Assembly: GCA_965223505.1 (NCBI GenBank)
Contig: CBDCWP010000021.1
Coordinates: 288,001-352,000 of the forward strand
Source of the DNA: Planctomycetota bacterium
GTDB lineage: Bacteria; Planctomycetota; PLA2; JAEUHO01
DNA: 64,000 bases
Direction: 5' to 3'
In this document: positions 5,771-32,073 of the stretch, piece after piece
How the letters are laid out: each line of letters opens with the position of its first letter
How positions within the stretch are numbered: the stretch's first letter is position 1
The notes under the pieces: model-generated
What the model was told of the DNA's origin: nothing
The model's database searches: none
What the model saw: only the letters and a program-made list of their open reading frames with translations
Program-made: the position numbers and the translations under genes

Positions 5771-8700
5771 ATGTCGACCGATTCCAACATCGGCCAGATT
5801 CTGGTCGGGCGGTACCTCCTGCGCCGTCTGCTCGGGAGCGGTGCGCACGGACGGGTCTACCTCGCCGACGACCTGGGTCGCGGCGGTACGCGCGTCGCGT
5901 TCAAGCTGGTGGAGGGACTGGTCGGCGGCGGGCCGCGTGATCCCGCCGAGTCGATCCTGCGCTGGCTTCGCCACCCGAACTGGGCCGACGTTCTCGACGC
6001 GGGCGCCTGTGGGGCGCACGACTATTTCCAGGTCACGCGCTACGTGCAGGGACGGAGCCTCGACAAGCTCGCAGGGCCGCAACCGGTCGAGCTCGTCTGG
6101 CAGGTGCTGGAAGACGGCGCGCGGGTACTCCGCGCGCTGCACCAACAGGGGCTGATCCACTACGACGTCACGCCCGGGAACCTGCTGCTCGAGCCCGACG
6201 GCGACCGATCCGCTTTCGTGCTGACGGACGGCGGCCTGGCCCACGTAGGTCCGGTGCGTGGCGTGGCGCGCGGCACGCCGCAATACATGGCGCCGGAGGT
6301 CACCGAGGACCGGGGCCATGATCACCGCACCGATCTCTATTCGCTCGGACTGGTCGCATACCGCCTCGCGGTGGGACGCGACCCGTTCGAGGGGGGTGCC
6401 GGGGACGTGTTGGGACAGCGGCGGCGTTACGACTCACCTCGTGCGTCCGTCGTTCGTCCGGAACTTCCGCCGGAGCTGGACGACCTGATCGCGGATCTGC
6501 TGGCTCGGGATCCGAACGCACGTCCGTTTGACGGCAACGCCGTGCTCGATCGCGTTCGGGATGCGCGCGACGCGCAGGTGCCCGAGTTCACTGCGGTGGA
6601 GGGGCTCGCGGCCGCAAGCGGAGGCCCGTTGGTTGGTCGCTCTCGCCAGCTCGTCCGCTTCCGCCGGACGGTCCGTGAGCTCGCGCGGCACCTTCCGGCG
6701 GAATCCGAAGCGCGTGTTCGGGGACCCGTGTCGCATCTGACGGATCCGGTCGTGCTCGTCCGCGGTGCCCCAGGCGCCGGCACGACGCGGCTGGTGAGCG
6801 AGTTTGCGTCGCTCGCGCGGGATGACGAGCTGCCGGTGATGCTGGTCGCCGGGCGTGAACGAGCGCCTGACCGACGCGGCCCGCTGCGTCGACTCGTCGA
6901 CGGACTCTCGTCACTCGGATTGGGAGAGGACGAGAAACCGGAGAAGATCCGCTTGGATCTGCGCTCCAACGGCATGCAGCGCGAGGAAAGAGCGCACGCG
7001 GCGAACCGAGCGATCGAAGTCGTGATCCGCGAGGTCGAGCGAGCGGCGGAACGCACGCCCTTCGTGCTGCTGGTCGAAGACTTCGCCGACCTGCCTTCGG
7101 GGGCGAGGGAGGCGGTGCGCGTTCTGTCGAGGCACCTCCTTTCGCGCGCCGAGGAGCCGGGCCGGCACGACGCGTCACCGGTTTCGCTCGTCGTCGACCT
7201 CGGCGTGGCTTCTCCGGACTCGCTCTTGATCCCGGACGCCATGAACTTGCAGCGTCCGGTCATCGAGCTCGACGCGCTGCAGTACGGCGATCTGCAGACG
7301 ATGTGCGAGACGCGGTTCCCCGGGCTCACGATGGTCTCGGAGGACGTCGCACGGCTCTACGAGACGTGCGACGGAATGCCGTCGACGTTGGTCGCGGTGA
7401 TGAGCGAGGCCGGGCGTCGCGGAGACCTGAGGTACGACACCGGCCGCTGGCACTGGGACCTGTCGGCGCTCGACGCGTACGAGATCCGTCGCGGGCTGAC
7501 GCCGATGCATGCGGAGGCCCTGGGGCGGGCCGGACCGCGAACGAGGACGCTGTTGCAGCAGCTCGCGCTGGTGGAGTCCAACCTGGGGGAGCCCGTCGTT
7601 CGAGCGTTGTGCGAAAGAGCGGGGCTGGAGGAGATCCCCGCGACCACGCTGTTGTCGGTGCAGGCCCAGACGACGTCCGCGGCCTATGCGCTTGCCAACA
7701 AGTCGATTCGTGACGAGCTTCTCAGAACACTGACGGAGGACGAGGTCCTCGCACATGCCGAACGGCTGATCAAGACACTGGAGGCGCACGCGTCGCCGGA
7801 GACGGTGCTCGAGCGCGCGCGTCTCCTGGTACGCGTGGGACGAGGTGAGGATGCCGTCCGGCTGCTGCACGACGCCTGCGACGACCTGACGGTCGAGGAC
7901 CGACATGCGACGCAGTCGGTCCTTCGCACGGCGCTCGACGCCGACGAGTCCCTGGCACGGGGCGAGACACGCAACGCCATTGCAGCGCTGCTCGACCATG
8001 GCCCCGACGCCGTACACCTCGCGACGGCACTTGCTTCGACCGAAATCGCGCACGAGCGTTGCTCCAACGCAATCGCTATCGCGCAGACACTGCAGTCAGG
8101 CCAAAAATACCGTGACGCTCTTGACTTCCTGAAGAACGACATCGACCCCGGTGATTCGGCCATTGAAAGTAGCCTGCTGCACTGCATCAGGGCGCAAGTC
8201 TTGCTCGCGACCCAACAACTGGAACTCGCGCATGATGCGGTTCGTGAGGCGCGCCTCTGGATGAGAAGGGGGAGAAGCGCCCGACACACTCACCCGGGCA
8301 GAGTCTTCGCATACCTCGCGACGACCGCTCAGATGATGTTCTTTCGAGGCCGGTTGGACCGCGCGGCGCGGCTCCTTCGAAGAGCCACGCGCTACGCGGC
8401 GAAGGACGGCAGCCTCTTCAAGCGTGCGAGCGTTCTGAACAACCTCGCTATCACGCTGACGTCCAGCGGAAGGCCACGAGAAGCGCAGCGGTATTTCCAG
8501 AGGGCACTCCGCCTAATGCGGCTCATTGGTGACACCGATGGTGTGGTCTTCACCACACTAAACGTAGCCCGTTTGAACTACCTCGCTGGCGATCCATTGG
8601 GAAGCGCGTCGCTCTACAAACAATGCGCGGCGCTAGCGCAACGATATGCGCTGCACGTAACGGTCACGAAGGCCCTGCGCGCCTTGGCGCTGATCTTCGA

Positions 8701-11299
8701 CGAAGGCGGCAATCCCACGCTGGCGTTGTCCACGCTGACGCGGGCGCTTCGCACCGCCGAAGAGAAGGATCTGGCAGCGCGGAGCGCGCGACTGGCGTGG
8801 GACATCGCGCCGCTCGCAGCGGCGCTCGGCGAGAGCCAGGCGGCCCGCAAGGCGCTCGCCGTGTCCGCCCGATGCGCCCGGCAGCGCGTCACGACCGAAT
8901 GCCGGCCGATGCACTTCATCACGAGCGGCGTCTCGTCACTGCACGTCGGCAACCCGGCGCGCTTCCGCCGCAGGATCGAGCTGGCGGAGCGGCACCAGAC
9001 GGATCTCCTCGGCGAGAACGCGCCGCTCCTGCCCATCCTGCGCTCCGCGGCCGTCGCGCTCTCCCAGGGCAACTTCGCCCCGGACCTGTCGGCGCGGCCC
9101 GCCCCGCGCGAGTCGGGCCGACTGATCTACCGCGCCCTCGCATGGATGGCCCAAGCCGGGCGGAATCCGGCGCAGCTCTCGGTAGCCGACGCGCCGTACC
9201 TGGTGCACGATCGCGCGCGGGCCGGCTACCAGCCGGGATTCGAGCAGCGCATCGCCGTCGAGCTGTGCCTACACGTATTCACCTACTCTCGGGCTCCACT
9301 GCGCAGCGAGGCGATCGCCGACATCCGAGCGCGCGCCCAACGCGCCGGCGAGAAGATGATCCTCGCGAGGACGTGTGCGCTGTCCTCGGCCCTACAGGAC
9401 AGTCCGCTCACACCGGACGACGCCCGTCGCTTCTCGCAGGCCGTATCGCTGCTCGGTTCGATTCCCCGGTTCGTCGATTTCGGCTCGCACGGCCTTCCCA
9501 AGGAGTTCGACGTTGCGGTGCAACGTCACGCCGCGACGGTTCGACCGATCACGTCCGAGGAGACCGTCTCCGTCGAATCGCTACACGCGCTGGCGCATCG
9601 GCTGCTCGTCCACAGCGGATCGACGGACGCGCCGGACAAACGGCTCGCCTCGGCACTTCGACGCGTTCTCGAAGCCACGGCCCTCATGAAGGCCGGCGCG
9701 GACGTCGATGCGCTGCTGGCCGACATGACCCGCAACACGATCGAGATCACGGGCGCGGAGCGTGCCTGCGTCGTTCGATTGGAGGGCGACACCGAGCTGC
9801 AGATCAAGGTCGCGACGAGCGCGACGGAGCAGGATCACAAGGTCAGCATCGAGGACCTCTCGCACACCGTCATCCATCGCGTCATCGTCTCCCGCCAGGC
9901 GCTCTTGCTGCATGACGTGTTCGACGACGAGGAGCTCCTGGGGCGCCCGAGCATCACAGCCCTCTCGCTCCGCTCGATTCTGTGCGTGCCGATGCTGCGC
10001 GGCGAGACGCTCTACGGGGTGATGTACGCCGACAACACGTCAGCGGCCGGCTCGTTCGACAAGACCGACCTCGAGGTCCTGATGCTCTTCGCAGAGCAGG
10101 CAGCGGCCGCGCTCGAGACGATGCGCCTCGTCGCCGACGTCCAGGCGAGCATGGAGGAGCTCAAGGCCATGCAGGACCGGCTCGTTCGCGGCGAGCGACT
10201 GCGCGTCATCGGTGAGTTGAGCAGCGGCGTCGCGCACGAGTTCAACAACCTGTTGACCTCGATCCTCGCGCGCGTCCAGCTGATCAGCCTCAACCCGCTG
10301 AGCGTCGAGCTGAAGAACGACCTCGATCTGATCGAGAAGGCCAGCCTCGACGCCGCCGAGGTCGTACGCCGCCTCCAGAGCTTCAGCCGCTCCCAACGGC
10401 AGGCCGACTTCCGGCCCGTGAAGATCGAGGAGATGTGTTCGGACGCGGTCGAGTTCCTCCGTCCGCTCTGGGCGACGCGCAGGCGCCACGGACGCCCGGC
10501 GATCCGGGTTCAGGTCCGCTGCGAAGACGACCTCGACGTCGCCGGAGATCCGACGGAGCTTCGCGAGGTGCTCACGAATCTGATCAAGAACGCCCTCGAC
10601 GCGCTCGACGACGGCGGGGACATCACCGTCTCCGCCGCCGAGCGCGACGGTGAGATCCGCGTTCGCGTCGAGGACACGGGCAGTGGCGTCCCCGAGGAGC
10701 TGCTTTCGAAGGTGTTCGACCCCTTCTTCACCACGAAGGGCGAGCGCGGGACCGGGCTCGGACTCGCATTGAGCCAGCAGATCGTCGAACGACACGGCGG
10801 CTCGATGACGATCGACCGGGGAGCGGGCGGCGTCGGCACGCTGGTTTCGATCACGCTACCCAAGCTCGAAGACAGCGCGTCCCCCGTGCTCGCCGACACC
10901 GCGACCGAGGACACGTCCGAAGGAAACGGCTCCATCAAGGTGCTCGTCGTCGACGACGACGAGAGCGTGCGCGAGCCGCTCTGCGAGTATCTCGAGCTGT
11001 CGGGCTACGAGGTTCACGCCGCTCGAGACGGCAGCGAGGGTCTGCGCGCCGCTCCGGCCGTCTCCCCCGACATCGTGATCAGCGACGTCGGCATGCCGGG
11101 CATGGACGGTCTCGAGCTCTGCCGTCGACTGCGAGCGCTCTTGCCGGAGCTCCCGGTGATCTTGATCAGCGGATGGGCGAGCGGCATCAAGCCGGTGCAG
11201 GCTCGCCGGGCTGGGGCGCGCGCCCTGCTGGCGAAGCCGTTCGCCATGCAGCAGGTGACGGAGCTCGTGACCTCGCTCACCTCCGCGGCCCGCAATTGA
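5771..11299 (+). CDS. Multidomain hybrid sensor: Ser/Thr kinase-like + AAA-like + TPR + GAF + HisKA/HATPase + receiver
   Basis: LGSGAHGRVYLA, VAFK, HYDVTPGN, GTPQYMAPE; GAPGAGTT and LLVED; TPR (ASVLNNLA...); GAF (RSILCVPM...GVMYADN); AHEFNNLL, NLIKNALDA, FDPFFTTK, GTGLGL; REC VVDDD...DVGMPGMDG...KPF. Confidence 0.9.
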   Translation: MSTDSNIGQILVGRYLLRRLLGSGAHGRVYLADDLGRGGTRVAFKLVEGLVGGGPRDPAESILRWLRHPNWADVLDAGACGAHDYFQVTRYVQGRSLDKLAGPQPVELVWQVLEDGARVLRALHQQGLIHYDVTPGNLLLEPDGDRSAFVLTDGGLAHVGPVRGVARGTPQYMAPEVTEDRGHDHRTDLYSLGLVAYRLAVGRDPFEGGAGDVLGQRRRYDSPRASVVRPELPPELDDLIADLLARDPNARPFDGNAVLDRVRDARDAQVPEFTAVEGLAAASGGPLVGRSRQLVRFRRTVRELARHLPAESEARVRGPVSHLTDPVVLVRGAPGAGTTRLVSEFASLARDDELPVMLVAGRERAPDRRGPLRRLVDGLSSLGLGEDEKPEKIRLDLRSNGMQREERAHAANRAIEVVIREVERAAERTPFVLLVEDFADLPSGAREAVRVLSRHLLSRAEEPGRHDASPVSLVVDLGVASPDSLLIPDAMNLQRPVIELDALQYGDLQTMCETRFPGLTMVSEDVARLYETCDGMPSTLVAVMSEAGRRGDLRYDTGRWHWDLSALDAYEIRRGLTPMHAEALGRAGPRTRTLLQQLALVESNLGEPVVRALCERAGLEEIPATTLLSVQAQTTSAAYALANKSIRDELLRTLTEDEVLAHAERLIKTLEAHASPETVLERARLLVRVGRGEDAVRLLHDACDDLTVEDRHATQSVLRTALDADESLARGETRNAIAALLDHGPDAVHLATALASTEIAHERCSNAIAIAQTLQSGQKYRDALDFLKNDIDPGDSAIESSLLHCIRAQVLLATQQLELAHDAVREARLWMRRGRSARHTHPGRVFAYLATTAQMMFFRGRLDRAARLLRRATRYAAKDGSLFKRASVLNNLAITLTSSGRPREAQRYFQRALRLMRLIGDTDGVVFTTLNVARLNYLAGDPLGSASLYKQCAALAQRYALHVTVTKALRALALIFDEGGNPTLALSTLTRALRTAEEKDLAARSARLAWDIAPLAAALGESQAARKALAVSARCARQRVTTECRPMHFITSGVSSLHVGNPARFRRRIELAERHQTDLLGENAPLLPILRSAAVALSQGNFAPDLSARPAPRESGRLIYRALAWMAQAGRNPAQLSVADAPYLVHDRARAGYQPGFEQRIAVELCLHVFTYSRAPLRSEAIADIRARAQRAGEKMILARTCALSSALQDSPLTPDDARRFSQAVSLLGSIPRFVDFGSHGLPKEFDVAVQRHAATVRPITSEETVSVESLHALAHRLLVHSGSTDAPDKRLASALRRVLEATALMKAGADVDALLADMTRNTIEITGAERACVVRLEGDTELQIKVATSATEQDHKVSIEDLSHTVIHRVIVSRQALLLHDVFDDEELLGRPSITALSLRSILCVPMLRGETLYGVMYADNTSAAGSFDKTDLEVLMLFAEQAAAALETMRLVADVQASMEELKAMQDRLVRGERLRVIGELSSGVAHEFNNLLTSILARVQLISLNPLSVELKNDLDLIEKASLDAAEVVRRLQSFSRSQRQADFRPVKIEEMCSDAVEFLRPLWATRRRHGRPAIRVQVRCEDDLDVAGDPTELREVLTNLIKNALDALDDGGDITVSAAERDGEIRVRVEDTGSGVPEELLSKVFDPFFTTKGERGTGLGLALSQQIVERHGGSMTIDRGAGGVGTLVSITLPKLEDSASPVLADTATEDTSEGNGSIKVLVVDDDESVREPLCEYLELSGYEVHAARDGSEGLRAAPAVSPDIVISDVGMPGMDGLELCRRLRALLPELPVILISGWASGIKPVQARRAGARALLAKPFAMQQVTELVTSLTSAARN

Positions 11300-11788: not shown

Positions 11789-14700
11789 ATGGCCGATGCA
11801 AACGCCCACGAAACAGCGGGCCGGGAAGGGCCTCGTAACCCCTTGCGGGCAATAGCCCTCCGGACGTATGCCTTTTCGATGCGCCGCTGCCGCCCGCTCT
11901 TGATCTGCTGTCGGCCGAGAGCCCGTAGGAGCCGCCGACGCGGTCGGCCGTGGTGGCTGAGGCGACGTCGCTTTCAGCTCAGGGTCACCATCCACGCGTG
12001 CGAAGTCACCGAGTACGGGGTGGTCATCACGTTCTCGCTCCTCCGTGCCATGTTCACGCACGGGCGCTTCCCTCGAGTGATCGCCTTTGAATACGACCCC
12101 TCCCTCCCGGCTCATCGGTTTGTGGCGAGCACGCTCCTGGCGACTGCCGATCCGACGCCAAATACTCTGGCTGAACTCAGGCGTAGCCCACCCCAACCGC
12201 AGGTGCCGACGCGCCCATCAACCAGTTGGTGGTACCGACGCGGCTTCATGCAGGAAGGCGTCGTGCGCTTGGGGCGCACTCTCGAGCGGAGACCCACACG
12301 TCGAGTCGCTTGGCTCGCAATAGTCCGCTTGCTTTCGACGCCGCAGCCCGCCTCACGACTCCGTTCAGACTTCGTCCGAATTGCGCGCAAGGCCGCGGGC
12401 GTCGTCGCAGAGACTGATGTCGTCCGAGTGTTTGGGCAGGATCTGATCCGATATCTGCTCAACGAAGGCGACCTCGACTTGCGCCGCTACCGTGATGCAC
12501 TCCGGAGTGTTGACGAAACCGAGCGGGACTATCTCCGTGCAGTAGTCGCGATCCTCAGTGCTCGACATGCTGTTTCAACCGCCAAGTCGCCAGCCGTAAG
12601 GCTCGTCGCTGCTTGGCGCGCCGAACGACGCTCGCGCCGAGCGGGACTGCTGTCACTGCAGGGGACCGCGCGCTCGTTTCGAAGGCGTATGGAAGGAGCG
12701 TACGAGGATGTCGCGCGAGTGATGGTCCGAAGCCACCGAACGAGGGCTCTGTTGCCGGAAGCGAGTCGATTCGTTTCGCCGGCCAATGACTGGCTGTTCT
12801 TCGCACTTCAGCAAGGGAGAACCCCCTATTCGCAGATTCGTGCGGCCATCGGCTGTCTTGCGGACGCGTGGCCGAATGCAAGAGTGCCAATTGGCGTCGC
12901 AACCGCACTCAGGTTGCGTGACTTGCGACGCTGCTTCCCTGGGTCAGCGGAGCGGCTCAGGTCGGTACTAGCTGAGCGATCGCTTCTGGACAACGAGTTC
13001 GCTCAGACGACTGCGCCTTCGGCTAGCGCCGCGAACGTCCTGCACATCCTCTCCGCCGGGATACTAGGTGAGCCTCTTCGACGTGCATTTCCGCTTGAAC
13101 CAGGGCACCTCGCCTTCTTACCGGCGCTATGGCGGCGCCACCGGCCGATGGGCCGGAACAGCGCTCGTGGAGGCACTCTCGATAGGAATGCGGCCGTAGA
13201 CCTCGCCTGCAGCCTAGTCATTCATGGGCAGCCCGTTGATCGCCAGCAGCGGAGAGTACTAGTCTCGGCACTTCGTAGCGAACGGCCGTGGTCCCGGCGG
13301 CTGATTGTTGGGATGGTTGCCTGCCGGATGCTCCTCAGAGAGGGCAACGTCCCACTCGCGGGCAAACAGCTCGTCAAGGCCAAGGACGCCTACGACGGGT
13401 TTCGTGCACTCTGTCGGCAACACGACGTCGAGAAACAACCGGATCTGCTCGACGACTACGAGTCGCACTGCACTCGCGTGCTGGAGGCCTTCACCCCTCG
13501 CGTCGCTCCCGGAAAGCACGTCGTCCGAACCCTCGAGCGCGTGATCGCGCGCCTACCGCGCCGCCGGCCCCGTCACCCGGGCCGAACGCTCGCAGCGCTC
13601 GACGCCGTCATCACCGCGGGCCAGTCCGCGCCGGATCAAGAGATCGACCAGCGGGTCGTGCGGGAACTCGCACGAATGCTGCGGGCCCGCGTCCTCTTCC
13701 ACTACGCCGCGGGACGCTACCTCTCGCTCGAACATCAACGACGACACACGCTCTCGACCTGGACGATGAGGCGGCTGGTCTGCGACGACGAGTTTCTCGT
13801 GAAGAAGGTCCGCCGCCGACCCGAGTTCTGGCGACCGGAGCAACGACGACCCGGAGGCGTCATCCGCTTCGCCGTCGGACGCGGTGTCGCGTGTCTGGCA
13901 AGGAAGTCCCCGTTCCGCAATCGCGAAGCCCGCGCCGTACGAACGGTCCTGCGCTTCCTGGCCGAGCGCCGGGAGAAGCCGCAGGCGCCTCTGACGGTGG
14001 CGAGGGACATCCGAGGCCGTCGAACGCGCGAGCCGCGCCCCATCGAGGGGCTGGTGGGGACCTCGCGTCCGTGGCGGCGCACGCTGCGAAACGTGTGGCG
14101 ATTCGCGCCGACGGACTGTTCCGTGATCGTCTTGGGTGAGACCGGCACCGGCAAGGAAGGCGTCGCCCGGGCGCTGCATCTGGCGTCCGAGCGCGCGCAG
14201 GGCCCCTTCATCACGGTCAACTGCGGGGCTGTCCACACCGAAACACTGGCCTCGACCCTCTTCGGTCACGTGCGCGGCGCCTTCACGGGCGCAGACCGCC
14301 CACGTCGCGGTCTCTTCGTCGCCGCGCATCGCGGCACGCTCTTCTTCGACGAGCTCAGCGAAATGCCCTACGACATGCAGACCGCTCTGCTGCGGGTGCT
14401 GGAAGAAAGGACCATCCTGCCGCTCGGTGCGACCAAGCCGCGCCGCATCGACGTTCGAATCGTGTCGGCGACCCACTCCGACATCGACGCCGCCGTTGCC
14501 ACAGGCCGACTGCGCTCCGATCTCGTCCATCGATTGGACGTCGCACGCCTGGTGCTCCCGCCGCTGCGCGAGCGCATGTCCGACCTGCCGTTGCTCACGA
14601 GCCATCTCCTCGCACGCGCCGAGATCGCCCAGACGATGCACATGGACGCGCTCGAAGCGCTGGCCCGCCACACGTGGCCGGGCAACGTACGAGAGCTGGA

Positions 14701-15046
14701 CAACGTGCTTCGCGCGGCCGCACTTCTCAGCGACGGCCCGGTCATCGAGCCGGCCGTCGTGGAGCACGTGCTCGACTCTCGGCGTCGCGCACAGGCGAGC
14801 GCCCCGCGTCTCGCGGCTCCTCTGACCCCGCGCGCGCGAGAGATCGTGCTTCGCATGGGGGATCGCTGGTGTTCGACCCCGGAGCTGGCAGCAGAGCTCG
14901 GCGTCTCACCCCGGACGATCAACCGCGAACTGGCCGAGATGCTGGATTCGGGGCTCGTAGAGGCTTTCGGCCGCGCTCGTGCGCGGCGCTATCGCGCCTG
15001 TCGCGATTCGTCGGGTTTCGGCGTCGCCCAGCCCGAAGTCCACTAG
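11789..15046 (+). CDS. Sigma54-dependent transcriptional activator (bEBP) with a long atypical N-terminus, GAF-like segment and C-terminal winged HTH; start codon uncertain
   Basis: GETGTGKE, VNCGA, LFGHVRGAFTGA, LFFDE, LLRVLEE, WPGNVREL; C-terminal ELAAELGVSPRTINRELAEM. Confidence 0.85.
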   Translation: MADANAHETAGREGPRNPLRAIALRTYAFSMRRCRPLLICCRPRARRSRRRGRPWWLRRRRFQLRVTIHACEVTEYGVVITFSLLRAMFTHGRFPRVIAFEYDPSLPAHRFVASTLLATADPTPNTLAELRRSPPQPQVPTRPSTSWWYRRGFMQEGVVRLGRTLERRPTRRVAWLAIVRLLSTPQPASRLRSDFVRIARKAAGVVAETDVVRVFGQDLIRYLLNEGDLDLRRYRDALRSVDETERDYLRAVVAILSARHAVSTAKSPAVRLVAAWRAERRSRRAGLLSLQGTARSFRRRMEGAYEDVARVMVRSHRTRALLPEASRFVSPANDWLFFALQQGRTPYSQIRAAIGCLADAWPNARVPIGVATALRLRDLRRCFPGSAERLRSVLAERSLLDNEFAQTTAPSASAANVLHILSAGILGEPLRRAFPLEPGHLAFLPALWRRHRPMGRNSARGGTLDRNAAVDLACSLVIHGQPVDRQQRRVLVSALRSERPWSRRLIVGMVACRMLLREGNVPLAGKQLVKAKDAYDGFRALCRQHDVEKQPDLLDDYESHCTRVLEAFTPRVAPGKHVVRTLERVIARLPRRRPRHPGRTLAALDAVITAGQSAPDQEIDQRVVRELARMLRARVLFHYAAGRYLSLEHQRRHTLSTWTMRRLVCDDEFLVKKVRRRPEFWRPEQRRPGGVIRFAVGRGVACLARKSPFRNREARAVRTVLRFLAERREKPQAPLTVARDIRGRRTREPRPIEGLVGTSRPWRRTLRNVWRFAPTDCSVIVLGETGTGKEGVARALHLASERAQGPFITVNCGAVHTETLASTLFGHVRGAFTGADRPRRGLFVAAHRGTLFFDELSEMPYDMQTALLRVLEERTILPLGATKPRRIDVRIVSATHSDIDAAVATGRLRSDLVHRLDVARLVLPPLRERMSDLPLLTSHLLARAEIAQTMHMDALEALARHTWPGNVRELDNVLRAAALLSDGPVIEPAVVEHVLDSRRRAQASAPRLAAPLTPRAREIVLRMGDRWCSTPELAAELGVSPRTINRELAEMLDSGLVEAFGRARARRYRACRDSSGFGVAQPEVH

Positions 15047-18781: not shown

Positions 18782-19213
18782 CTAGAACCGCACGAGCAGC
18801 ACGTCGCACGGGGCCTTGCGCATGACGCGCTCCGCCACGCTGCCGATCAGCAGGTGGTCCAGCCGCGAACGGCCGTGGGTCCCCATCACGATCAGGTCCG
18901 GCTCGAGCTCCCGCACGGCCTCCAGGATCACCGTCGCCGGCTTCCCTTCCTTCACCATCGTTCCGAAGTCGTGCTCCGGGTGCGCCCGCGCTTCCTGCTC
19001 GAGCTTCTCCACCGACAGTTGCTTGATCTTGTCGATGTCCTTGCGGTGAGGGTAGATCCCGAACGCGCTCTCCGTCACGACCGGGAGCCACTCCACGACG
19101 TGAAACAACGTGATCTTGCCTTCGGGCGCGGCCACCCGCATCGCCGTCTGAAGGATGCGCTGGGAAGACTCCGCGAAGTCGAGCGGCACCAGGATGTTGT
19201 CAAAGCCCTTCAA
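18782..19213 (-). CDS. Universal stress protein (UspA family)
   Basis: ILVPLDF and DLIVMGTHGRS...LIGSVAERVMRKAPCDVL; TTG start with GGAG RBS. Confidence 0.93.
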   Translation of the reverse strand: MKGFDNILVPLDFAESSQRILQTAMRVAAPEGKITLFHVVEWLPVVTESAFGIYPHRKDIDKIKQLSVEKLEQEARAHPEHDFGTMVKEGKPATVILEAVRELEPDLIVMGTHGRSRLDHLLIGSVAERVMRKAPCDVLLVRF

Positions 19214-19256
19214 CGCACCGCTCCAACGTCAATCCGCCGCGCGCCAGTATCGCACA

Positions 19257-21098
19257 TCACTTGGGCGCAACGAGCCGGTCCCCCGCGACGACGCGACGCG
19301 CATTCAGAAAGTCCTTCACGGCCATCACGCGCCCGCCGGACGGCCGCACCCGCAGGATGCGCAGCACGCCCTCGGCACATGCCACGTCGATGCCCTCCTT
19401 CGATGCCGCCAGCACCGTCCCCGGCCGAACCTCGGTCTGCGTCTGCACGGCCTCGGGATCGACTTGCACGGCCCCCTCGGCCTCCGACGCCGTAGCCGGG
19501 GCGCCCGCCCCCTCCGCCAGCCTGGGATCGTCCGCAGGCGCGCACTCCGCGACGATCAACGGCAACGGCTCGTGCTTCACCTTGGGCTGCCACGCCGTCT
19601 GCGCCCCGGGCCAGCTCGTCACCGAACGAATCTGGTTGTAGACGTCGGCCGCCGGCGCGTCCCAGTCGATCACGCCGTCCTCTTTCGTGAGCTTGCCCAC
19701 GTACGTCGCGGCCTCGTGGTCCTGCTCACTCGGCTCGATCTCGCCGTCCAGGTACGAACCGAGTGTGCGCACGAGCAGGTCGGCGCCGACCTCCGCCAGC
19801 TTCACGGTCAGCTCGTCCGCCGTCTCTGTGCCGTTGAGCTTGATTCCACGCTGCGCCACCATCGGTCCGTGATCGAGCTCCTCGTCCATGACGAAGATCG
19901 TCACGCCCGACTTCTTCTCGCCCGCCCGAATCGCCGCTGCGACCGGACTCGCCCCGCGGTACTTCGGGAGCAGGCTCACGTGCACGTTCAGGCACCCATG
20001 CTTCGGAAGGTCCAGAACACCGCGCCCGAGCTTCTGCCCGAACCCCGCCGTGATGACCACGTCGGGGTTCTCGGCCTTGATCGCATTGCGCGACGTCATC
20101 CCGTTTACGTCGCCCGTTCGATGCAACGGAAGCTCGAGAATCTCCGCCTCCTTGGCGACCGGCACCTCTTGCTTGCGCCGTCCACGGCCCGACTTGCGCG
20201 GCGGCGGCGTCACGACCAGCAGCGGCTTGAAACCCGCGCCCACCAACGACCGCAGTGACGGAACGGCGAAATCGGGCGATCCCATGAACACGACACGGGG
20301 GCCGGCGGGCGCGTCCTCGATCTCGATGTGGTCGAGCGTGTCGGCGGCGAGGTCCTTGTCGACCTCGCCCTGAATCTCCAGGCCGGCTTCCCGCAAGCGA
20401 ACCTGGATGTCGTTCAGGCCCTCCTGCGTAACCTCGACCTTGCGTAGCTTCATCAGCTCCAACAGCGCGAGGAACGCGCCGATCACGTACGTGCGGTCGC
20501 GCTTCGCCCCGATCAGCTCCGTGAAGCTGAGCGCGCCGCCCTCCGACGTGAGGTGATCGAAGATCAACCCGACGAAGTGCGTGATCGGAAGCCGCTCCTT
20601 CGGCATGTGCACCGACTCGTCGTCGCCCGTCTCGCGCATGAGCCGCTGGAAGGCCTCGACGAGCACGAACAAGTCCACCTCGAGCGGATCCTCGGACCGA
20701 TCACGCTGCGCGGCGGGCTGCGTCACCTTCGCCTGACGCTTGTCCCGTTGTTGCGCGGCGCGTTCTTCGAGCTCCGCCGAGATGTGCTTGAAGTCGCGGT
20801 ACTCGATGAGCTGCCGCACGAGGTCGAGCCGCGGATCGATCTCCTCGACATCGACCTCGGTTTCGCGCGGCAGCAGCGCACGGCTCTTCATGACGAGAAG
20901 CTGACTCGCCATGACCAGAAACTCACCGGCCTGGTCGACGTCGAGGTCTTGTACCTGGTTGCGACAGATGTCGAGGAAGCGGTCGGCGATGCGAGCGATC
21001 GAGATCTCGTAGATGTCGACCTCCTCCTGTTGCACGAGGTGCAGGAGCAGGTCCAGGGGGCCTTGAAAAGCGGCTAGATCGACGCGGAGCTCGTCCAT
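19257..21098 (-). CDS. scpA-fmt: Fusion of ScpA (SMC kleisin, N-terminal about 250 aa) and methionyl-tRNA formyltransferase Fmt (C-terminal)
   Basis: FQGPLDLLLHLV..EVDIYEISI, EFLVMASQLL.MKSRALLP and FLALLELMK (ScpA) continue in frame into RVVFMGSPDFAVPSL, NVHVSLLPKYRGASP, MDEELDHG, ATYVGKLTKEDG.IDW (Fmt). Confidence 0.9.
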   Translation of the reverse strand: MDELRVDLAAFQGPLDLLLHLVQQEEVDIYEISIARIADRFLDICRNQVQDLDVDQAGEFLVMASQLLVMKSRALLPRETEVDVEEIDPRLDLVRQLIEYRDFKHISAELEERAAQQRDKRQAKVTQPAAQRDRSEDPLEVDLFVLVEAFQRLMRETGDDESVHMPKERLPITHFVGLIFDHLTSEGGALSFTELIGAKRDRTYVIGAFLALLELMKLRKVEVTQEGLNDIQVRLREAGLEIQGEVDKDLAADTLDHIEIEDAPAGPRVVFMGSPDFAVPSLRSLVGAGFKPLLVVTPPPRKSGRGRRKQEVPVAKEAEILELPLHRTGDVNGMTSRNAIKAENPDVVITAGFGQKLGRGVLDLPKHGCLNVHVSLLPKYRGASPVAAAIRAGEKKSGVTIFVMDEELDHGPMVAQRGIKLNGTETADELTVKLAEVGADLLVRTLGSYLDGEIEPSEQDHEAATYVGKLTKEDGVIDWDAPAADVYNQIRSVTSWPGAQTAWQPKVKHEPLPLIVAECAPADDPRLAEGAGAPATASEAEGAVQVDPEAVQTQTEVRPGTVLAASKEGIDVACAEGVLRILRVRPSGGRVMAVKDFLNARRVVAGDRLVAPK

Positions 21099-21333
21099 GC
21101 GCCCAGAGTCTACGCCCCCTGTTCCTCAGGCTTCGCTAAGCCCAACCCCCTTGAATTGGGGGCCGCCCGAGGGAACGACCGCAGGACCCCTTGTTCGTAT
21201 GGACGTAGGTGATCCGATGTGGGAAAACAAGCCCCGTCTACACCGCGCTTCGGGCGGAGGGATTGCAAGCCGAAGGCGTAGAATTGCGGGACAGCCGGAC
21301 GGCCGCCCCGGGGTGGGCTACGAAGGAGGCGAG

Positions 21334-21870
21334 GTGAGCTCGGTGATGCGAAGGATCCGGCTCTTCGCGATGGACGTCGATGGGACCCTCACGGACGGAA
21401 CCATCACGTACACCGCGGATGGCAGCGAGTTGAAGACGTTTCACGCTCGCGACGGCCAAGGCATCAAGCTCCTTCGACTCGCCGGCATCGTCCCGGCGCT
21501 CATCAGCGGGCGCACGTCCGCACACGCCGCACGCCGGGCCGCCGAGCTCGGCATCGAAGAGGTGCACCAGGGCGTGCACGACAAGGCCGCCGTCCTCGAC
21601 GCGTTGTGCGCGCGCATGGGACTCTGTTCCGGCGACGCCGGCTTCATCGGCGACGACCTCTCCGACATTCCGGCCATGCGTCACGCGGGCTTCTCCGCGG
21701 CGCCGGCGAACGCCGCCCCGGAGACGCGCGCCGCCGCGACGTTCGTTTGCTCCGCCGACGGCGGCATGGGCGCCGTTCGTGAAGCGATCGAAGCCCTGCT
21801 TCGTTCCCAGAACCGCTGGGACGACGTCCTGTCCATGCTCGACGCGGCCGCGCAGGAGGCGGGAGCGTGA
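21334..21870 (+). CDS. kdsC: 3-deoxy-D-manno-octulosonate 8-phosphate phosphatase (HAD family)
   Basis: MDVDGTLTDG, ISGR, GDDLSD and GGMGAVREAIE; AAGGAGG RBS before GTG 21334. Confidence 0.9.
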   Translation: MSSVMRRIRLFAMDVDGTLTDGTITYTADGSELKTFHARDGQGIKLLRLAGIVPALISGRTSAHAARRAAELGIEEVHQGVHDKAAVLDALCARMGLCSGDAGFIGDDLSDIPAMRHAGFSAAPANAAPETRAAATFVCSADGGMGAVREAIEALLRSQNRWDDVLSMLDAAAQEAGA

Positions 21871-26164: not shown

Positions 26165-28639
<2,475 letters not shown>

Positions 28640-28994: not shown

Positions 28995-30092
28995 CTACTC
29001 CAGCGCAATCGGCATGATCACGTAGGTGTAGTCGTCGTGGTCGCTGAGCTTCCCCGGCGACTTGGCGTTCGTGAACTCGAACCGGATCTCGCTCGCCGGC
29101 TCCATGACCTTCAACGCGTCCTGGAGGAACAACGGATTGAACCCCACCGTCTGGGGCTGGCCGTCGTATTCGACCGGGACCTCCACCTTGGCCTCGCCGA
29201 CGTCGCGGGCGCGGCTGCGAATCACGAGCGTCTGCGGTTCGATGTGGAGCTCCACGGAGAGCGCGTCCCGGGTGGTCAGCAACGACGCGCGGCGAAGCCC
29301 CGAGGCGAAGTCGGCCGCCGTCGATCGAAACTCGTGATCGCTCTGCGCCGGAATGACGCCGTCCAACGAGGGGAACGACCCGTCGATCAAACGCGAGATG
29401 ATCAGGACGCCGCCCACACGGAACATGGCCTGCCGATCGGCAATCGCCAGCTCGATCTCCGCGTTGTCGCCTGAAACACGCTCGAGGAGCTGCAAGCCCT
29501 TGGGACCGACGATCGCCTGCACATCGCCGGATTTCCTTCCGAGGTCACCCGTCGCGCGGGCCAGGCGCCGCCCGTCCGTCGCCACCATTTGGATGTTCCT
29601 GCCGGAAATCTGGAACTGCACGCCGTGCAAGGCGAACCGGCCCGCCTCCTTGGCAGTAGCGAACGCCGTCCGTCGAATCATGTTTCGAAGGAGCTCCGCC
29701 GAGATCGTCGTTGCGCCCTTGTCGGGAAAGAACGGCAGCTGCGGGAACTCTTCGATCGACTCGCCCCGTACGTGAAAGTGCGAACGGCCGGTGTCCACCG
29801 AGAGTCCGCCGTCCTTCTCGAAGAGGGTCGTGGTTTCCTCGTCGATCTCGCGGACGATGGCCAGGAACCGCGCGGCCGAAATCACCAAGGCTCCGGACTC
29901 GGCGACGTCGGCATCAGGAATGTGATGACGAATGCCGACGTCGAGATCCGTTGCTTCGAGACTGAGTCCGGTCGTCGCATCCGCACGAATGGCCAGACAC
30001 TCGAGAATCGGCTTCGGACTCTTGTTGGCAGCAACGCTCGCTACGTAGGTCGTAGCCTCCAAGAGGACTTGTGTCGGAAGCGAAACTCTCAT
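28995..30092 (-). CDS. dnaN: DNA polymerase III beta clamp
   Basis: KPILE, LEATDLDVGI, MVATDGRRLA, SRLIDGSFP, GFNPLFL and YVIMPI motifs; 365 aa. Confidence 0.96.
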   Translation of the reverse strand: MRVSLPTQVLLEATTYVASVAANKSPKPILECLAIRADATTGLSLEATDLDVGIRHHIPDADVAESGALVISAARFLAIVREIDEETTTLFEKDGGLSVDTGRSHFHVRGESIEEFPQLPFFPDKGATTISAELLRNMIRRTAFATAKEAGRFALHGVQFQISGRNIQMVATDGRRLARATGDLGRKSGDVQAIVGPKGLQLLERVSGDNAEIELAIADRQAMFRVGGVLIISRLIDGSFPSLDGVIPAQSDHEFRSTAADFASGLRRASLLTTRDALSVELHIEPQTLVIRSRARDVGEAKVEVPVEYDGQPQTVGFNPLFLQDALKVMEPASEIRFEFTNAKSPGKLSDHDDYTYVIMPIALE

Positions 30093-30594: not shown

Positions 30595-32073
30595 CTAGGG
30601 GCCGGACGTCTCTCCGGGGCGGCTCCAGCCCGCCCCCAGGCGGTCCAGATGACGCTCGATGGCGGCCGCGAAACGCGGCTCCCGGTCGACCCGATCCTGC
30701 ATCTTCCGTACGGCGTAGAGGACCGTGGAGTGGTCCCGTCCGCCGAAGAAGTCACCGATCTCGTCCAACGAGTGCGACGTCGCGCGCCGGATGAGGAACA
30801 TCGCGGTCTGCCGCGGCTCCGAAACGCTGCGGCCGCGCTTCTTCGACCTCAGATCGGCCGGCTTGACCTGGTGGTGCGCGCACACGAGCTGGACGACCTT
30901 CTCGATCGTGACGGCATGCCGTCCGGAGTGCACGGCAGGCTCAAGCGCCTCTTTCGCGAGCTCGAGATCGATGCCCGTTCCCTTGACCTGCGAACAGGCC
31001 TGAACGCTGACCAGCGCGCCCTCGAGCTCGCGGATGTTGTTCCTGAAGTTGCTCGCGATGTACTCGACCACGTCGTTCGGGATCCGCGTCCCCTGGAGCT
31101 CCGCCTTGCGGTGGATGATCGCCATGCGCGTTTCCATTTCCGGCTGCTCGAGCTGCGAGACGAGGCCCCACTGGAAACGCGAGACCAACCGGTCCTCGAG
31201 ATTGGGGATCTCGGACGGCGCCGCATCGCTGGAAACGACGATCTGGCGGTTGCTCTGGTAGAGCTGGTTGAACGTGTGGAAGAACTCTTCCTGGGTGCGC
31301 TCCTTGCCCTGAAGAAAGTGGATGTCGTCGATGACGAGCAGGTGCACCGTCCGGAACCGATCGCGGAATGCCTGGTGGTCAGCGCGCTTGATCGCCGACA
31401 CGAATTCGTTGATGAACTCTTCGCACGAGAGGAAGCACACGCGATCGGACGGAAAGTTCTTCATGAACTGCCGGCAGGCGGCGTGCAGGAGATGCGTCTT
31501 TCCGAGCCCGACGGCGCCGTGGATGAACAACGGGTTGTACGCACGGCCCGGCTTCTCGGCCACGGCCTGCGCCGCCGCGTAGGCGACGCTGTTCGACGGG
31601 CCCTTGATGAAGTTCTCGAACGTATAGTGCTCGTTGAGCTGCAGCGGAATGTCGTCGGGACCCGATCCGACGAAGGGCGCCGGCTGATAGCCGGTCGGCT
31701 TCTTCTCCGCCGGTGGGGGCGGCGTGGTCGGGGCATGCGTGGGCGGCGGGGGCATGGCTGCGGCGTCCGACTCCGGGCCCGCTTCCGGCTCTTTGGCTTC
31801 GGCGACGGTCAGGTTGACCTGCACCGGAGCGTGATCGAGCTCGGACGCGACCTGAGTGATCGGCGTCATGAAATGCTTGCGCAGCCACTCGAGGTAGAAC
31901 CGATTCGGCACCCCGAGGACGAGACGGTTGTCGTGCCAGCGCAGAACGGACGTTCGTTCGAACCACGTCGTGTACTGCTGGCGCGAAACCCGCCGCCGCA
32001 ACGCGTCGTGGAGCTCCTGTGTTCTCGGGTGGCTGCTCACAGAACTGCCCGAAGTTCGATCACCGTGTTCCAT
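30595..32073 (-). CDS. dnaA: Chromosomal replication initiator DnaA
   Basis: YTFENFI.G.SN, YNPLFIHGAVGLGKTHL, LLVIDDIHF, QEEFFHTFN, RLVSRF, NIRELEGAL, GGRDHSTV. Confidence 0.98.
   Translation of the reverse strand: MEHGDRTSGSSVSSHPRTQELHDALRRRVSRQQYTTWFERTSVLRWHDNRLVLGVPNRFYLEWLRKHFMTPITQVASELDHAPVQVNLTVAEAKEPEAGPESDAAAMPPPPTHAPTTPPPPAEKKPTGYQPAPFVGSGPDDIPLQLNEHYTFENFIKGPSNSVAYAAAQAVAEKPGRAYNPLFIHGAVGLGKTHLLHAACRQFMKNFPSDRVCFLSCEEFINEFVSAIKRADHQAFRDRFRTVHLLVIDDIHFLQGKERTQEEFFHTFNQLYQSNRQIVVSSDAAPSEIPNLEDRLVSRFQWGLVSQLEQPEMETRMAIIHRKAELQGTRIPNDVVEYIASNFRNNIRELEGALVSVQACSQVKGTGIDLELAKEALEPAVHSGRHAVTIEKVVQLVCAHHQVKPADLRSKKRGRSVSEPRQTAMFLIRRATSHSLDEIGDFFGGRDHSTVLYAVRKMQDRVDREPRFAAAIERHLDRLGAGWSRPGETSGP

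Follow-up and report, generated by a model that had tools for sequence, protein, structure and literature searches.

Architecture of the ScpA-Fmt protein

The DNA analysed here (the window) is a stretch of 64,000 nucleotides from a planctomycetal genome (Planctomycetota bacterium, assembly GCA_965223505.1; contig CBDCWP010000021.1, positions 288,001 to 352,000), in which a single gene encodes both ScpA, the kleisin of the Smc-ScpAB complex, and Fmt, the methionyl-tRNA formyltransferase. The gene lies at 19257..21098 on the minus strand and, according to the list of open reading frames and the translation, is one ATG-to-TGA frame of 613 codons, closed by the TGA stop at 19257-19259 and containing three Pfam domains in frame. 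From the N-terminus the product consists of a complete ScpA kleisin (residues 1-235), an acidic linker of 31 residues (236-266) and a complete Fmt (267-613). A first-pass annotation of the window had proposed such a fusion from the letters alone, and its reading of the locus as one frame of 613 residues stands. The fusion is real and inherited, and within a single family of uncultured planctomycetes it is fixed.

The ScpA module (20394..21098, minus strand) was delineated by a Pfam match, by matches to solved structures and by an AlphaFold2 (AF2) model. The SMC_ScpA family (PF02616) matches residues 21-234 over positions 1-230 of its 232-position profile with 110.4 bits (cut-off 24.6), between the lowest and the highest score of three unfused relatives (97-125 bits). 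Unlike canonical ScpA, the fusion scores under the cut-offs of all four full-length ScpA equivalog models in NCBIfam. The two motifs from which the annotation had deduced a complete ScpA are both present: FQGPLDLLL (residues 11-19) in the N-terminal helical domain, which in ScpA binds the SMC neck, and FLALLELMK (residues 209-217) in the C-terminal winged-helix domain, which binds the SMC head cap. In an alignment of 99 fused relatives (see below), Gly13, Pro14, Leu15, Leu17, Leu18 and Leu19 of the first motif and Phe209 to Leu215 (FLALLEL) of the second are invariant, and the invariant columns of the ScpA half number more than 50. The winged-helix domain was modelled with helices at 172-185 and 202-217 and strands at 221-226 and 230-235, with a predicted local distance difference test score (pLDDT) of 83-92. 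For the module as a whole the pLDDT is 64-93 outside a partly disordered middle, with the disordered stretch at 120-140. Among solved structures, the ScpA half aligns by sequence with the ScpA pieces 3w6j (E 1.4e-24), 4i98 and 3zgx, its residues 1-82 matching chain C of the last. It thus resembles the ScpA of Smc-ScpAB from Bacillus, Geobacillus and Streptococcus (3w6j, 3zgx, 4i98) in its full-length SMC_ScpA profile and in its N-terminal and ScpB-binding matches, and differs from it by the addition of a 347-residue Fmt at the C-terminus after the linker.

Association with ScpB was assessed by modelling residues 1-266 together with two copies of the ScpB encoded in the same genome. The best control scored 0.26 and the complex 0.64, a mark attained by 116 of 157 solved complexes as against 2 of 215 mismatched pairs. 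At least 60% of the contacts agreed between runs, the pLDDT of the partner was at least 81, and the predicted ScpB contacts fell on ScpA residues 12-15, 55-63 and 96-128. As like complexes have already been solved (3w6j, 4i98), the pass may reflect memory of these structures, and the model indicates likeness to Smc-ScpAB rather than binding.

The Fmt module comprises an N-terminal catalytic domain (residues 267-465; 19704..20300, minus strand), recognized from Formyl_trans_N, TIGR00460 and the alignment to 1fmt, and a C-terminal domain (residues 466-613; 19260..19703, minus strand), recognized from Formyl_trans_C. The fmt equivalog model TIGR00460 (NCBIfam) matches residues 268-605 over model positions 2-308 of 315, scoring 236.3 bits where the cut-off is 201.5. 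The Pfam matches are to Formyl_trans_N (residues 292-446, 120.1 bits) and to Formyl_trans_C (residues 469-601, 74.2 bits against a cut-off of 21.1), the latter with 133 residues covering 99 profile positions. The best solved-structure match of the entire fusion is Escherichia coli Fmt (PDB 1fmt/2fmt, E 4.3e-56), with about 40% identity over 232 residues as read from the printed alignment. Asn371 (codon 19986-19988), His373 (19980-19982) and Asp409 (19872-19874; all codons on the minus strand) align to Asn108, His110 and Asp146 of the E. coli enzyme, which we take to be the catalytic Asn-x-His and Asp of the formyltransferases; the annotation had rightly listed these motifs as retained. Arg305 (20184-20186, minus strand) aligns to Arg42 within a basic loop (PRKSGRGRRKQ opposite DRPAGRGKKLM), presumably the Fmt-specific loop that reads the acceptor end of initiator tRNA. 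His373, Asp409 and Gly304-Arg305-Gly306 are invariant in the 99 relatives and Asn371 is conserved in at least 90%. The fused and the E. coli enzyme thus share a two-domain layout with the catalytic Asn/His/Asp and the loop Arg in register, and def is present in the fusion's genome as well. The fused Fmt differs in lacking a start codon of its own, in having a kleisin in front and in lying outside any def-fmt operon, the usual bacterial arrangement, in which Def would be the upstream neighbour. A further difference is a stretch of about 35 residues inserted into its C-terminal domain. This low-complexity insert (residues ~522-558; window 19431-19541, minus strand) is rich in Ala, Glu and Pro, is gapped in at least half of the 99 relatives and has a pLDDT of 52-58, whereas the Fmt blocks outside the insert and one loop reach 95-98.

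The linker (20301..20393, minus strand) contains 10 Asp/Glu against 2 Lys/Arg, in agreement with its earlier description as acidic; over the 99 relatives, linkers average 27% Asp/Glu and 7% Lys/Arg and are poorly conserved in sequence. The block-mean pLDDT drops to 46-53 across residues 241-260. The linker sits where ScpA of unfused relatives has an Asp-, Glu- and Pro-rich C-terminal tail, and it is most simply read, from these sequences, as that old ScpA tail. For the whole fusion the AF2 model has a mean pLDDT of 84.4 and a predicted template modelling score (pTM) of 0.62; given this pTM and the low pLDDT of the linker, no confident contact is predicted between ScpA and Fmt. The predicted picture is that of two globular modules joined by a tether.

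At the junction with Fmt, which the annotation had placed at about 20300, the position proved exact: the codon of Pro267 is 20298-20300 (minus strand), and the segment PRVVFMG (residues 267-273) carries, as noted earlier, Pro where Fmt ordinarily has its initiator Met, that is, at the ancestral Fmt start. Among the 99 fused proteins this position is Pro in 81, Leu in 7, Val in 4, Ala in 3, Ile in 2 and Thr in 2; with Pro in 81 of 99, the old fmt start codon is gone, and an internal start kept at the ancestral position was rejected. These data bear on the possibility that the gene yields ordinary free ScpA and free Fmt, either by proteolytic cleavage of the linker or by an internal Fmt start. 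The linker is exposed, acidic and of low model confidence, as a cleavable tether would be, position 267 is Leu, Val or Ile in 13 of the 99, whose codons can sometimes be starts, and separate products would remove the problem of ScpA/Fmt stoichiometry discussed below. Against it stand, besides the prevalence of Pro267, the absence of Met from the linker of P0001 and the position of Met272, which is invariant, but a start there would cost the first beta-strand (269-273); nor could a cleavage motif be named. We regard such processing as distinctly improbable.

Conservation of the fused frame

Relatives of the fusion were collected from 5.8 billion clustered proteins. This yielded 99 protein clusters of 580-649 amino acids, all with the three domains; identity to the query is 49-84% and coverage 99-100%. 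Their full-length members are free of stops, and in the alignment both halves keep their invariant functional residues; judged by these residues, both look functional, with no sign of decay. The clusters that carry a name in public records are called only 'methionyl-tRNA formyltransferase [Planctomycetota bacterium]'. Surveys by gene name would, because of this naming, score the fused genomes as devoid of ScpA.

The class to which the source genome belongs contains two families among the genomes compared: the family of the window (f1; 29 species genomes from 16 genera, all genera represented) and its sister (f2; 11 genomes). In 26 of the 29 f1 genomes, a single open frame of 584-910 amino acids, on one contig and one strand, contains the ScpA match together with the Fmt match. 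The other three are incomplete where the match stops; in two of them (G365 and G404) a contig end truncates the gene, and the third (G324) retains residues 1-192 only. In one genome (G403) a TGA was flagged within the match, which must lie at the very end of the alignment, since both domain matches share one frame of 608 amino acids. A second ScpA locus was not seen across the 29 f1 genomes.

An indel or stop at the junction was also looked for in contigs of three runs of one sample, which cover 19200-21200 except for one bin in run X3; there was no differing letter and no indel. This agreement adds little, as the sample may be the window's own source. In a run from a second sample (X4), 16 of the 30 bins were covered, by short and partly unlike pieces, from which nothing was drawn.

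Taken together, these observations dispose of the view that the gene is an artefact of assembly or sequencing at the junction, or a gene of which one half is dying. Separate, adjacent scpA and fmt genes do exist in f2, and DNA of high GC content gives long spurious frames. Yet the same fused frame occurs in 26 f1 genomes from many assemblies and in the 99 clusters, the contigs of the three runs show no indel, both halves exceed the Pfam and TIGR00460 cut-offs while keeping their invariant residues, and the frame has the codon composition of the real genes of the window (GC content 0.87 at third and 0.40 at second codon positions). An artefact has next to no probability, and the fusion is neither an assembly error nor a recent loss of a stop. 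In this respect the argument of the annotation, that Pro in place of Met speaks against a stop lost between two genes, was partly right: a recent loss or a sequencing error is out of the question, but the fusion did come from two adjacent genes, which overlap by 4 nt in f2.

Copy number and partner genes

The source genome (5.15 Mb in 44 contigs, 92.5% complete) contains one ScpA match and one fmt match above cut-off, and both are the fusion. A weak second fmt match on contig C10 was rejected as an fmt copy; it is a 208-residue protein that we read as PurN-like on the basis of its length and the motif HPSLLP. The partners are present elsewhere: smc on contig C1 (SMC_prok_B, 938 bits), scpB on contig C44 (ScpB, 167.9 bits) and def on contig C39, all unlinked to the fusion gene. 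As remarked in the annotation, neither scpB nor def adjoins the fusion gene, which holds the sole scpA and the sole true fmt found. With smc and scpB in the genome and a ScpA-ScpB2 model that passes its controls, the predicted system resembles canonical Smc-ScpAB.

Origin and reach of the gene pair

In 10 of the 11 genomes of the sister family, fmt follows scpA immediately and in the same orientation; the eleventh gave an scpA match alone at the threshold used. Five f2 junctions were read (e.g. loci L024-L028), and in these the TGA of scpA overlaps the start of fmt by 4 nt, as ATGA in one and GTGA in four. Such an overlap of stop and start by four bases is typical of translationally coupled genes. 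In genus g13, scpA and fmt share a frame that is interrupted by a single stop. The f2 pair shares with the fusion the gene order and strand, an Asp/Glu/Pro-rich ScpA tail and an Fmt that begins with (K/R)-hydrophobic-V-F-x-G; it differs in consisting of two genes, which except in g13 are in different frames with the ATGA or GTGA overlap, and is 33-40% identical to the fusion. The fused state separates the two families cleanly (29 genomes of f1 against 11 unfused of f2) and can serve as a marker of f1. Comparison of these sequences suggests that the fusion was most likely born by in-frame joining of two overlapping neighbour genes.

The annotation had set its proposal against the possibility that relatives encode two separate genes. 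This is the case in f2 and in other classes, but not in the window's own family; as separate genes occur only outside f1, they date the fusion rather than refute it. The wider distribution was determined in a sample of 61 genomes of the phylum, of which 2 are fused (both f1) and 59 are not. Among these 59, scpA is followed by fmt on one strand at no more than 300 nt in 8 (f2, f34 (two), f27, f28, f25, f55 and f50), and the two matches are 620-1540 nt apart in 7 (f24 (two), f6 (two), f20 (two) and f35). They are far apart or on different contigs in 40, and an Fmt match alone (E <=1e-15) was obtained in 4. At 18 loci outside f1 a stop is always retained after scpA; the Fmt match overlaps scpA or starts within 45 nt of its stop at 11 of them, the gap is 426-561 nt at 5 and more than 1 kb at 2. 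One genome (G033, f34) was considered as an independent fusion, as its two matches are in the same frame, and was rejected, the junction being a TAG, one codon and a GTG start.

A scan across prokaryotes with two ScpA peptide patterns, using one genome per species, was evaluated for the best 80 loci. Four of these are fused and 4 have fmt 0.7-2.8 kb downstream; scpB follows 40-530 nt downstream in 19 and lies 5.8 kb away on the other strand in 1, and the remaining 52 have neither fmt nor scpB within the DNA fetched. The fusion, with no scpB adjoining, differs from the 19 loci in this respect. The scpB-linked loci among the 80 are mostly labelled Verrucomicrobiota or Deltaproteobacteria, and at those labelled Pirellulales or Gemmataceae scpA is followed by neither fmt nor scpB.

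When 1.84 billion representative proteins were scored with the full-length fusion as query, no independent ScpA-Fmt fusion was found among the best 150 of 51,773 matches, to which the following observations also refer. The sole full-length match to both modules (P0061) belongs to the same clade; P0109 is a fragment with parts of both domains, and P0104, P0121, P0122, P0126 and P0130 were taken as its fragments from their query ranges. The remaining matches were fragments of P0061 or single Fmt proteins; four longer ones proved to be Def-Fmt fusions (two), a duplicated Fmt and an N-terminally extended Fmt. The Def-Fmt proteins (P0140, 508 amino acids; P0202, 483 amino acids) contain Pep_deformylase, Formyl_trans_N and Formyl_trans_C and are distant Fmt homologues; they provide a precedent for Fmt fusions. 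Like the protein studied here, they have Fmt joined at its N-terminus to another protein. The difference is that Def shares the formylation/deformylation cycle with Fmt, whereas we know of no tie of ScpA to that pathway. Residues 4-111 of the fusion also match NF001751 (PRK00478), a 505-position NCBIfam model named 'segregation/condensation protein A' in which the ScpA N-terminal region is at 161-273; this layout implies that other extended forms of ScpA exist elsewhere. A full-text search of the literature, which did not extend to subscription journals or InterPro architecture tables, yielded no description of a ScpA-Fmt fusion, and the annotation likewise knew of none. Both modules come from well-known families; their combination is new.

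Function and persistence of the fusion

The annotation had offered two explanations, a physical coupling of condensin to the translation-initiation machinery and a tolerated, lineage-specific fusion. The latter agrees with the fixation of the fusion in f1 (26 of the 29 genomes with the complete frame) as the only scpA and fmt of the genome, and we consider it likely that the protein is a genuine, vertically inherited bifunctional fusion whose two modules work independently on a flexible tether, tolerated and fixed rather than built for the purpose of linking them. The sequences show the architecture, its conservation, the sole-copy status and the overlapping arrangement from which the fusion arose; that the modules act independently and that joining them was nearly neutral is what we infer here.

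Judging from f2, the ancestor of f1 would have had a translationally coupled scpA-fmt pair with the TGA of scpA overlapping the ATG or GTG of fmt. Deleting one base, or inserting two, immediately upstream of the overlap would have brought scpA into the frame of fmt, with loss of both the stop and the start. In the resulting protein the ScpA part would bridge the SMC dimer, close the ring and carry the ScpB dimer, and the Fmt part would hang from the C-terminal winged-helix domain of the kleisin and formylate Met-tRNAfMet. SMC-bound fusion molecules and any free pool could do so alike. Being the only copy of both genes, the fusion would then have been locked in. Its persistence needs no benefit, because splitting a sole copy again requires that a stop and a start arise at once.

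That ScpA tolerates cargo at its C-terminus is known from a ScpA-YFP fusion of Bacillus subtilis. When ScpA-YFP, made from the native locus, is the only ScpA of the cell, growth and chromosome compaction are reported to be fully supported, and about 43% of the molecules to be mobile throughout the cell (PMC6125636). Should the same hold for ScpA-Fmt, a free pool of fusion molecules could reach ribosomes and tRNA. The two proteins are alike in being a sole-source kleisin with an addition, C-terminal in ScpA-YFP by its name, and ScpA-YFP was functional; they differ in that YFP is artificial, inert and about 27 kDa, whereas Fmt is an enzyme of about 38 kDa and probably essential.

Several observations weigh against near-neutrality and independence. 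The linker is 30-32 residues long in 85 of the 99 relatives (range 27-45) and carries a semi-conserved D-(L/A)-A-A-x-x-(L/I)-(D/E) stretch, a constraint that, as read from the alignment, is greater than predicted for a purely neutral tether. The pairing of scpA with a following fmt extends beyond the class, to 15 of the 59 sampled genomes and 11 other families, which hints that co-expression itself may be selected. Forced equal amounts of ScpA and Fmt look costly unless the lineage makes much surplus ScpA, because SMC subunits are scarce, whereas Fmt must serve all translation initiation; slow-growing B. subtilis cells are reported to contain about 30 Smc dimers (PMC6125636). Two f1 bins of one genus hold an extra stand-alone fmt (L133, G365:C153:3103-4029, and L134, G406:C106:3922-4848; TIGR00460 234 and 224 bits), 32-36% identical to the fused Fmt and about 2 kb downstream of a purN-like gene. 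This gene could be a paralogue, in which case the fused Fmt is not always sufficient, or a contaminant of the bins. Finally, the fused lineage is known from metagenome bins alone, and to our knowledge it has no cultured member.

Some of the same observations would be expected if the tether of Fmt to Smc-ScpAB mattered in itself, either for formylation at the nucleoid or for tying the amount of kleisin, and with it that of closed SMC rings, to translation capacity and growth rate. The fusion has persisted in 16 genera at identities down to 49%, the linker is constrained in length and partly in sequence, the neighbourhood by dnaN and gyrB is kept in relatives, and the pairing in the 11 further families, together with the translational coupling in f2, indicates that co-expression predates the fusion. 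Adaptive coupling is nevertheless unlikely. A single indel in the 4-nt overlap suffices to produce the fusion, and the sole copy of two probably essential genes is hard to undo; AF2 gives no confident contact between the modules; a strong advantage might have recurred, but no second independent fusion came up among the best 150 matches of the protein search; and Fmt is fused to Def, its other common neighbour, as well, as expected from neighbourhood alone. More far-reaching, and quite unlikely in our estimate, is the idea that kleisin and Fmt form a functional unit, with the genes coupled in translation first and welded later, so that formylation capacity rides on Smc-ScpAB or on a regulated free pool of ScpA. 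If true, this would link translation-initiation capacity to chromosome organisation in a way undescribed in any organism.

On the preferred reading of a tolerated fusion, the protein is a curious, clean and well-dated one that most likely involves no new mechanism. Its interest is that of a natural experiment, as a whole family appears to live with a 38-kDa enzyme on the winged-helix end of its only ScpA, the same protein being the family's only supply of Fmt. This bears on the freedom of the SMC head-kleisin interface and on the small amount of Fmt with which slow growth can be sustained. It also calls for caution in 'Rosetta-stone' inference from gene fusions: since one indel in a 4-nt operon overlap can fuse neighbours, a conserved fusion is by itself not evidence of shared function.

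Gene neighbourhood and other features of the window

The fusion gene is followed downstream by a Usp gene and flanked on its other side by a divergent gene for a HAD-type hydrolase. Among 15 family loci, the Usp neighbour is present at 14 (the DNA of the other, L054, ends soon after the gene), the HAD gene at 13 and an LptD_N-like gene at all 15. The HAD/KdsC-like frame is open from 21097 to 21870 on the plus strand, and relatives (13 matching loci) mostly align only from about residue 85; its true start is therefore probably near 21346, leaving a divergent intergenic region of about 250 bp by the start of the fusion gene.

The genes gyrB (26165-28612), dnaN (28995-30092) and dnaA (30595-32073), all on the minus strand, lie 5-11 kb from the fusion gene, dnaA at about 9.5 kb. 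Where contigs of family members extend far enough (L052 and L055), gyrB and dnaN are 5-10 kb from the fusion, and this position represents shared synteny, not evidence of function. The statement of the annotation that the gene is about 9 kb from oriC found no confirmation, although dnaA is nearby. With one mismatch allowed, the DnaA-box 9-mer has 3 matches in the window against 1.9 expected, a number reached in 35 of 100 shuffles, and the cumulative GC-skew minimum of the window is near 42-46 kb and not at dnaA, so that oriC was not located. A scan of the entire window against Rfam gave no family at gathering score. Two further long frames are present on the plus strand: one at 5771-11299 encodes a signalling protein of 1842 amino acids that combines a Ser/Thr kinase, AAA_16, TPR, GAF, HisKA/HATPase and a receiver domain in one frame, and another, at 11789-15046, is 1085 codons long.

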